DNA from: a virus
Virus record (IMG/VR): IMGVR_UViG_3300045988_139511
Span: 1-55,729 of that record
Reading direction: 5' to 3' (one strand)
Length of the DNA: 55,729 nt
Of the stretch, positions 8,788 to 8,805 are shown piece after piece. The position numbers were made by a program, and so were the translations under genes. The notes beneath the pieces were generated by a model. That model saw only the letters and a program-made list of their open reading frames with translations, was not told where the DNA came from and made no database searches. Every line of letters starts with the position of its first letter. Positions within the stretch are counted from its first letter, which is position 1.

Positions 8788-8805
8788 TTGATTATTAATA
8801 TTCAA
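8788..8805. promoter_or_regulatory. 18-bp AT palindrome TTGATTATTAATATTCAA (copy 1 of 10)
   Basis: Imperfect palindrome; its centre lies about 64 bp upstream of the inferred E1 start site. Confidence 0.5.

Follow-up and report, generated by a model that had tools for sequence, protein, structure and literature searches.

Nine dispersed 18-bp dyads as predicted operators of an element-encoded regulator in a putative Clostridium-type phage-plasmid

What purpose would be served by a short inverted repeat that recurs, little changed, in the intergenic gaps of a viral genome, and which protein would read it? The question is raised by IMG/VR record IMGVR_UViG_3300045988_139511, analysed over its whole length of 55,729 nt (hereafter, the window), in which the 18-mer TTGAATATTAATAATCAA is found in early, replication and late regions alike. 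A preliminary description, made from the sequence alone, had taken its copies for the binding sites of a dimeric DNA-binding protein acting across the genome and had named the XRE protein encoded at 16186-16581 as an example of such a protein. The former part of this proposal is supported by the comparisons reported here, the latter is not. It is our view, held with moderate confidence, that the nine 18-mers represent predicted double-stranded DNA operators of a dimeric regulator encoded by the element itself, and that they make up a genome-wide regulon of a circular phage-plasmid; that a protein binds them, in which direction it regulates and which protein it is are points that we infer. We read the 18-mers as sites of a dimer because their outer half-sites are invariant, their spacing fixed and their centre variable across many elements, because the site is found in untranscribed DNA between terminator and promoter, at 19 nt from the -35 in relatives, and because the sites of the window do not fold as RNA. 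It should be added that the first 55 nt of the window (1-55) are identical to its last 55 nt (55675-55729), and the assembly is therefore circular and represents a complete genome of about 55.67 kb.

The nine sites and their placement

At three mismatches or fewer, nine distinct matches to TTGAATATTAATAATCAA were found in the window, as compared with 0.23 expected from dinucleotide shuffles (maximum 2), so that the abundance of the motif is not the one given by base composition, a concern raised at the outset. In a control independent of composition, TTGAW-Ng-WTCAA was counted at spacings from 4 to 12, with nine occurrences at g = 8 and 0-1 at each of the remaining values. The most conserved bases are G3 and C16, both invariant in the nine sites, and the motif is not "AT-only", as had been stated. 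Both orientations are used, as had been noticed before, with five sites on the plus strand and four on the minus strand. Once oriented, 9/9 sites carry A at positions 5 and 14; therefore each is composed of one TTGAA half and one TTGAT half, and none is a perfect palindrome. The sites, the degenerate copy and the promoter following site 1 are given below.

8788..8805, minus strand: site 1, TTGATTATTAATATTCAA; 17 nt after the terminator 8749-8770, 19 nt before the -35 of the early promoter 8825
19600..19617, plus strand: site 2, CCGAATATTAATAATCAA; two mismatches, in the outermost TT; 28 nt before the -35 at 19646
21828..21845, plus strand: site 3, TTGAATAATAATAATCAA; one mismatch; 16 nt after the terminator 21790-21811, 19 nt before the -35 at 21865
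25040..25057, minus strand: site 4, the same variant 18-mer as site 3 in the opposite orientation; one mismatch; 12 nt after the terminator 24998-25027, 20 nt before the -35 at 25078
30126..30143, plus strand: site 5; 16 nt after the terminator 30088-30109 (behind the portal gene), abutting the Shine-Dalgarno sequence (SD) of 30157-31122
35370..35387, minus strand: site 6; 25 nt after the terminator 35320-35344, ending 10 nt before the called start codon 35398
41855..41872, plus strand: site 7; 2 nt after the stop of 39678-41852, no terminator, abutting the SD of 41887-42171
51041..51058, plus strand: site 8; 17 nt after the terminator 51006-51023, upstream of DnaC-like and DnaB-like genes
54138..54155, minus strand: site 9; 17 nt after the terminator 54099-54120, 48 nt before the primase gene 54204
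20889..20906: degenerate copy; only the 12-nt core AATATTAATAAT kept, G3/C16 missing, four mismatches in the best register
8825..8853, plus strand: early sigma-A promoter, one of seven near-identical ones (TTGACACATTTGAGAC...TATAAT)

Ten copies had been listed originally, of which nine were borne out. The tenth, at 20889, lies beyond the limit of three mismatches and is probably not a functional site; lacking G3/C16, it was therefore not counted.

All nine sites belong to the intergenic 13% of the genome. A predicted terminator stem is situated 12-25 nt ahead of seven of them, the exceptions being 19600 and 41855; the reported closeness to terminators (5-15 nt) thus holds for seven sites at these distances and fails for two. 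Site 3 reaches into the preceding open reading frame (ORF), its TGA being the stop codon of 21508-21831 (4-nt overlap). Sites 1 to 4 are placed 19, 28, 19 and 20 nt upstream of the -35 of sigma-A promoters that match the consensus at 12/12 or 11/12 positions. Their centres, described as lying 64-72 bp upstream of the start, were indeed found near -63.5 or -72.5 of the start inferred from the consensus promoter, that of site 2 being one helical turn farther upstream than the others, and they are just distal to an UP-like A/T tract. A site precedes four of the seven early promoters, the other six of which start at 18958, 19646, 20333, 21865, 25078 and 25716; the one at 8825, downstream of site 1, drives 8903-9337 together with an SprT-like gene considered below. 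As to the promoters themselves, the seven share a perfect TTGACA-17-TATAAT and a common spacer (TTGACACATTTGAGAC...), 46784 being listed as well, and this spacer holds a half-site-like TTTGAGA, which reads TTTGAAAC or TTTCAAAC in relatives and resembles the half-site of the motif.

Sites 30126, 35370 and 41855 abut the SD, as was described, and end 10-14 nt before the ATG. The sites 51041 and 54138 had been said to abut the -35 of promoters of a middle ("M") class, which was not confirmed, no consensus promoter being predicted there on the plus strand.

The arrangement of terminator, motif, A/T spacer, -35 and SprT-like gene is kept in four relatives, with SprT-like proteins 87%, 76%, 66% and 41% identical to that of the window. 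In the first three (L330, L331 and L329, respectively), the distance of 19 nt between motif and -35 is retained as well, with terminator sequences that differ. In L329 the orthologue of site 1 is flipped; orientation is therefore irrelevant, as expected for a symmetric dimer. Site 6 recurs at the same place in the relative L079. The preliminary description had proposed to look for the 18-mer in related phages: sites of its kind were found in these and in L238/L239 (large terminase, TerL, 70% identical), which have the SprT-like gene and 8-9 sites per 20 kb, and not in Clostridium phage vB_CtyS-FA70 (hereafter FA70), where 56 kb contained no SprT-like gene, no site and no other dispersed palindrome. 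The general features of dimeric operators are present in the sites, namely a dyad, conserved half-sites, fixed spacing, abundance above chance and a position relative to the promoter that is conserved while the flanks diverge.

We conclude that the element would act as double-stranded DNA and be read by a dimer. An element acting as RNA, i.e. a hairpin by the SD serving as a signal for mRNA processing or stabilisation or as a translational operator, would agree with the many copies that lie 0-4 nt from an SD inside operons in several elements, and with folding energies of -3.3 to -3.9 kcal/mol for the perfect palindromes found elsewhere. The sites of the window, however, yield 0 to -0.5 kcal/mol (z = 0.1-0.7), no better than shuffles; four of them are located between a terminator and a promoter, and both orientations occur at orthologous positions. 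Furthermore, the outer 5 bp are invariant, not covarying, many of the 8-bp centres in other lineages are not self-complementary, and Rfam had no match in the whole window. An action as RNA is consequently judged highly improbable.

The TTGAA-N8-TTCAA family and its link to an SprT-like gene

The motif of the window represents the form taken in this lineage by a larger family of sites, TTGAA-N8-TTCAA. Members of the family occur in both Bacillales and Clostridia, in phages and plasmids that are unrelated to one another. When IMG/VR was scanned for exact copies of TTGAWTATTAATAWTCAA, many of the matches were singletons attributable to chance, and there were also contigs rich in the perfect palindrome TTGAATATTAATATTCAA, with nine sites in a contig of 18 kb and 16 in the 61 kb sampled of a contig of 97.5 kb; several prophage fragments from isolates had several copies each. 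These copies are intergenic and are situated by terminators, at the SD, over the upstream stop codon or near promoters. At the search sensitivity used, the motif-dense contigs have none or just one protein in common with the window; for two of them, L106 and L021, no annotated relatives were found, a search with the portal protein giving distant matches only. Counted over 22 representative SprT loci (330 kb), inverted TTGAA-N8-TTCAA gave 64 matches versus 1-6 at other spacings, and the everted arrangement 10 at most. In the same 22 site-bearing loci, the direct repeats TTGAA-N4-TTGAA (27) and TTGAA-N7-TTGAA (23) were also raised versus other spacings.

The centre is lineage-specific and reads TTGAAAAATATTTTTCAA in L238/L239, TTGAAAATTAATTTTCAA in L324/L326, TTGAATAGTACTATTCAA in a plasmid of Bacillus subtilis and TTGAAACATATGTTTCAA in one of Clostridium botulinum, and L317 possesses the variant GAGTATTAATACTC in three copies, two of them just upstream of an SD. 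At position 5/14 most lineages have A, the lineage of the window has T in one half, and L317 has G. Placement relative to promoters differs as well and again speaks for DNA: in the Fictibacillus locus L138, site and -35 overlap at an extended -10 promoter, and sites are found 5-7 nt from the -35 in L324/L326 and L238/L239, with pairs 40 and 70 bp apart. In a scan of genome collections, the Bacillales matches inspected, among the matches listed, were mostly in phage- or plasmid-like contexts, and those in other taxa were mostly chance singletons. BLAST of a 36-nt site probe against 50,697 cultured phage records gave chance single matches, in at most two places among the records listed. String searches of the literature with the 18-mer and N8 notations found no earlier description, and the family is apparently undescribed before.

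Two further observations concern the surroundings of such sites in other elements. In L138 (a contig of Fictibacillus gelatini), four imperfect sites with a spacing of about 33 bp follow immediately after the SprT gene (4988-5137), and this array adjoins a GC-rich oriT-like region with inverted repeats, a ribbon-helix-helix (RHH) gene and a relaxase gene, resembling a centromere or relaxosome accessory site. Elsewhere the palindrome directly abuts a LexA/Cheo-type box (e.g. TTGAATATTAATATTCAAcgaacagtcgtttg), as in L021, L045, L078, L109, L181 (Bacillus paranthracis), L158 and L170 (Priestia megaterium), Bacillus-type prophages, which suggests joint control with the SOS repressor.

The gene that accompanies the family is the following.

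9357..10160, plus strand: SprT-like Zn-metalloprotease, 267 aa, HEMVH (glutamate E86), two C-terminal Zn-ribbons (...CLGCGTSIRATK...; Zn-ribbon part at residues ~170-210)

Its product matches the Pfam SprT-like domain (PF10263) with 35.6 bits against a cut-off of 25.6, has an invariant HEMVH as its HExxH motif, and matches the SprT domain of human Spartan weakly (E = 0.004); PADLOC gave no match for it. When the ORFs of the window were compared by translated search with loci selected for the motif, the SprT-like protein was the sole recurrent match outside true relatives, and the motif was positioned within 31 bp of the SprT-like gene in five of the six motif-selected loci with such a match. 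The distribution was bimodal among 80 IMG/VR loci chosen solely for a relative of this protein: next to close relatives the density was 1.5-7 sites in every 10 kb, also where GC reached 41-50%, and next to distant ones there were none. After clustering at 70% identity, sites were present in 24 of the 37 SprT clusters (25 when the L317 variant is counted), and in 14 clusters a site falls at -250..+80 of the SprT start or just past the SprT stop. In most lineages the SprT-like gene has a site at its flank. The Zn-ribbon signature R-[AST]-[TSN]-[KR] occurs in about 22 of the 24 site-bearing clusters versus 3/13 of those that are site-free, L317 being among these three.

The association extends to plasmids. 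In L318, a complete 24.7-kb conjugative plasmid of B. subtilis with a parM-SprT operon, there are two sites, each abutting an SD, and in the C. botulinum toxin plasmid pCDC3875 (L323) a single perfect palindrome is placed 8 nt from the SD of SprT. The SprT-like protein is the sole protein of the window with homologues detected in L318, pCDC3875 and L138 (five sites). No close relatives of the B. subtilis plasmid protein were found in IMG/VR, and in the literature on SprT-like proteins of phages and plasmids no title or abstract concerned a regulator of this kind. On the strength of these associations, the product of 9357-10160 is the leading candidate either for the binder or for a conserved regulated cargo.

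It should also be noted that an XRE gene is present within 1.5 kb of SprT in 47 gut-phage SprT loci, and that in pCDC3875 a gene of a recombinase family (906-1472) is divergent from SprT and has VRVNT where resolvases have ARVST; since the catalytic serine is apparently replaced, the protein may be an inactive recombinase used for DNA binding.

Possible readers of the sites

In the model that we propose, the sites would stand at the 5' boundaries of transcription units in either of two arrangements, namely upstream of early sigma-A promoters in fixed phase (centred near -63.5, or farther by a helical turn), or immediately ahead of the ribosome-binding site of late or replication genes, in most cases shortly behind a terminator. 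A regulator bound there would modulate initiation at the early promoters, and at intra-operon sites it might act as a roadblock or as an insulator reinforcing the preceding terminator. One protein could in this manner keep all units, whether early, replication or late, in a common state, for example silenced in the plasmid-prophage and released upon induction. The most likely reader of the family would be the SprT-like protein, and site 1 would in that case serve its autoregulation; alternatively, some as yet unrecognised regulator may have the SprT-like gene as its first, conserved target. That the metalloprotease itself is the sequence-specific reader, so that phages and plasmids of Firmicutes, botulinum-toxin plasmids included, would have a global regulator coupled to a protease, is a tentative proposal that we consider rather doubtful. 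Such a reader could be a repressor whose proteolytic activity, switched on by DNA, inactivates either the repressor itself or a partner bound to DNA; if so, it would be a RecA-independent counterpart of the self-cleaving repressors of LexA/CI type, and the dispersed sites would be its regulon.

Several observations weigh against this model. The strict A5/A14 asymmetry of 9/9 sites is not accounted for by a simple homodimer, a repressor site would not usually be centred at -63.5 of a promoter that already has the consensus sequence, and a position between cistrons is unusual for a regulator of initiation. The association of SprT and sites is confounded by phylogeny, since the site-bearing clusters are also the closer SprT relatives. 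Moreover, the signature is present without sites in the sampled 16-19 kb of L241 and of L327/L328 (an Oscillospiraceae prophage with its own S24 repressor), and a Bacillus-type prophage family with 2-4 sites per fragment had no SprT in about 90 kb of sampled flanks, these prophages being incompletely sampled. A Foldseek search of the PDB with the AlphaFold2 model of the SprT-like protein (pLDDT 90.5) gave local Zn-ribbon matches only and no informative neighbour. Finally, the SprT/Spartan family is known for DNA-dependent proteases, not for sequence-specific regulators (PMC5389635).

Among the other proteins of the window, the one originally suggested has to be considered in this context.

16186..16581, minus strand: XRE-type helix-turn-helix (HTH) protein, the only gene on this strand in the early region

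Were it a CI-like master repressor with dispersed operators, its solitary strand position would be understandable and an 18-bp dyad would be the canonical target of an XRE dimer; in addition, a similar recognition helix is kept in the site-bearing L238/L239 (RQATISDM versus RLATISEL), and the orthologue in the site-free FA70 is shortened to 96 aa, the C-terminal part missing. However, there is no site in its own upstream region, either in the window (16582-16783) or in L238/L239, its family was found in just two other IMG/VR contigs, whereas the motif family is widespread, and no homologue was detected in the motif-bearing plasmids or unrelated phages, although all of them have the TTGAA half-site; XRE specificities normally diverge quickly. 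The suggestion is thus improbable, if still conceivable within this lineage in view of the shortened orthologue of FA70. A profile search for XRE proteins in motif-bearing loci returned generic ones only, and a small HTH protein common to motif loci, the excisionase-type HTH_17 of the Bacillus prophage family and L113, is not encoded in the window. A conserved host protein of Firmicutes that binds TTGAA-N8-TTCAA and has been recruited by mobile elements, much as other phages use host Spo0A, ParB or LexA sites, would explain why the same half-site is found in elements of Bacillales and Clostridia that have no detectable common HTH protein, and the LexA-type box directly abutting the site in some prophages points in the same direction. 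It too seems improbable. Phages of comparable hosts are without the motif (FA70, 0 in 56 kb; SPbeta, 0 TTGAA-N8-TTCAA in 100 kb), the Bacillales matches inspected among those listed were mostly phage- or plasmid-like and those in other taxa mostly chance singletons, and presence of the motif tracks a gene of the element, SprT. The lineage-specific variants (the TTGAT half in the window, GAG/CTC in L317) suggest a co-evolving reader encoded by the element, and none of the ARG, FNR/CRP, cre, Rex, Fur and LexA boxes is matched by the motif.

It may also be asked whether the 18-mers are regulatory sites at all. As recombination sites of the serine recombinase (25801-26745), or as short boundary sequences promoting the exchange of modules, they would be expected where they are, at module boundaries; it would also fit that sites 3 and 4 are one 18-mer in opposite orientations, that recombinase genes are found close to sites in the window, L192 and pCDC3875, and that the central TA dinucleotide is symmetric, as in the crossover sites of resolvases. 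An 18-bp site is, however, short for a serine recombinase (about 26-30 bp), the recombinase is absent from the motif-bearing L318, L138 and L113, and nine active sites in both orientations would scramble a genome whose relatives keep their gene order; we regard this explanation as very improbable. Still less credit can be given to the idea that the copies are mere relics of duplicated intergenic cassettes with no function of their own. Four sites do lie in repeated cassettes of terminator, motif and promoter, and the same asymmetry is found in 9/9, yet the late and replication sites are without flanking similarity, relatives keep the motif while its flanks diverge, and the same family with its strict spacing occurs in unrelated elements.

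Comparison with known systems was made by eye and comprised ARG, FNR/CRP, cre, Rex, Fur, LexA, CodY, Spo0A, hix and SPBRE consensus sequences; none fits in spacing or centre, in agreement with the initial statement that the motif is not a recognised operator. The ARG box of ArgR/AhrC reads TGAAT-N4-ATTCA, as against TGAAT-N6-ATTCA in the window, where only N8 between TTGAA and TTCAA is enriched, and the FNR/CRP-type box (TTGAT-N4-ATCAA) has a spacing of 4, not 8. CcpA cre and LacI-family operators have a central CG in TGAAANCGNTTTCA; here, the centres are A/T-rich or variable (TATTAATA, AAATATTT, AGTTTATT). A ParR centromere (parC) was also rejected, the sites being dispersed with none in 46.9-50.2 kb, where ACTGAGTATATA repeats occupy 48356-48630.

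As regards organisation, the closest analogue would be SPBRE/MrpR of SPbeta. SPBRE is a 15-bp conserved element with about 10 intergenic copies, several of them just upstream of the SD or in promoters, and is bound by a single master repressor, MrpR (YopR), which keeps the lytic units silent (PMC10516654). The likeness to the window consists in dispersed intergenic copies, several at the SD, in a temperate phage of Firmicutes, and the differences in the sequence of SPBRE (AAATACAAAAAATATGTATA, as read from SPbeta promoters, rather than a TTGAA dyad) and in the tyrosine-recombinase fold of MrpR. Membership in that system was rejected, the motif being unlike AAATACAAAAAATATGTATA and tblastn of MrpR against the window giving a best E of 0.9. 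To our knowledge, SPBRE is restricted to SPbeta-like phages, whereas the motif family of the window spans unrelated phages and plasmids.

The stoperators of Cluster A mycobacteriophages (sites of gp71 in L5) are likewise numerous short repressor sites in small intergenic gaps and also inside operons, where the bound repressor blocks elongation. They are asymmetric 13-mers with one orientation relative to transcription, in contrast to the site of the window, a dyad that occurs five times in plus and four times in minus orientation among co-directional genes and is flipped in L329, so that a single orientation of this type was rejected. KorB of the IncP plasmid RK2, with its OB sites, and C1 of the plasmid-prophage P1 are global autoregulated regulators with at least a dozen operators scattered at varying distances from promoters; these differ in sequence and in protein family (ParB-type KorB; C1), and KorB doubles as a partition protein, whereas the ParMR system of the window has repeats of its own at 48356-48630. 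In RDRM/DdrO/IrrE of Deinococcus and ImmR/ImmA of ICEBs1, the repressor of a regulon of dispersed palindromic operators is inactivated by a Zn-metalloprotease, which in these systems is of the COG2856/IrrE family and not SprT-like; a cleavage relationship in the window is not known. Cluster O mycobacteriophages carry tens of dyad-symmetric 17-mers in small intergenic gaps, differing in host phylum, sequence and copy number; they are not known to be linked to an SprT-like gene.

Regulons of dispersed operators are thus known in a few model elements (SPbeta, P1, RK2 and Cluster A mycobacteriophages). What is new here is that the same dyad recurs in otherwise unrelated phages, prophages and conjugative plasmids, alongside one uncharacterised SprT-like family. 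If the link is causal, it would show what a protease widespread in mobile elements and labelled "hypothetical" does, would make a regulon predictable in metagenomic phages and toxin plasmids, and would offer a simple system for testing, made up of one 18-mer and one protein of 267 aa; in the phage of the window, the sites would then mark where transcription of the early, replication and late units is switched.

Gene content of the window

Nearly all genes of the window are on one strand. A search with the TerL protein revealed Clostridium phages FA70 and FA67 as the closest annotated relatives (TerL 67% identical), and megablast of the early region found no known phage relative, just one 80-bp patch. 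A ParM-like protein with its RHH neighbour, a Rep-like protein, a serine recombinase, an XRE protein, a sigma-region-4-like protein (17316-17636) and the SprT-like metalloprotease are encoded; because of these genes, and of the iterons that go with the Rep-like one, the window looks like a Clostridium-type phage-plasmid, and the phage is probably kept as a plasmid prophage. The features concerned with maintenance are listed below.

46953-50237, minus strand: plasmid-maintenance module
46953-47309, minus strand: RHH-like neighbour of the ParM-like gene
47309-48229, minus strand: ParM-like protein
48356-48630: parC-like repeats ACTGAGTATATA, four copies in both orientations, upstream of parM
48635-49393, minus strand: Rep-like winged-HTH protein
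49943-50050: five iterons of about 23 bp (CTATTCGATTATCGAG)

The gene of DNA polymerase I is in two parts (10815-12197 and 13035-13964), separated by an insert with an HNH endonuclease ORF (12415-12951). The relatives L324, L329 and L330 have this gene uninterrupted (765-789 aa), and in FA70 an I-HmuI-like endonuclease occupies the same place as the insert. A stretch of about 80 bp (approximately 12957-13038) is 90-95% identical to short unannotated stretches in phage records of C. difficile and C. perfringens. The insert looks like a group I intron or a homing-endonuclease insertion; Rfam gave no match to it at the gathering threshold.

The serine recombinase (25801-26745) consists of a resolvase domain and HTH_7 with an N-terminal extension of 125 aa. 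Its gene is directly upstream of the large terminase gene, in the usual place of the small terminase, and the same layout is seen in L238/L239 and L326; in FA70, tblastn gave no match to this recombinase, and a different ORF of 300 aa holds that position. A TnpB/Cas12f-like (OrfB_IS605) gene is present in the early region of the relatives L324 (15473-16828) and L326 (7502-8857) and absent from the window. The tail-fibre-like gene 42246-45263 (1005 aa) contains 66-bp tandem repeats at 42711-42990, which encode a repeated segment of the 'SQVNTAI' type.

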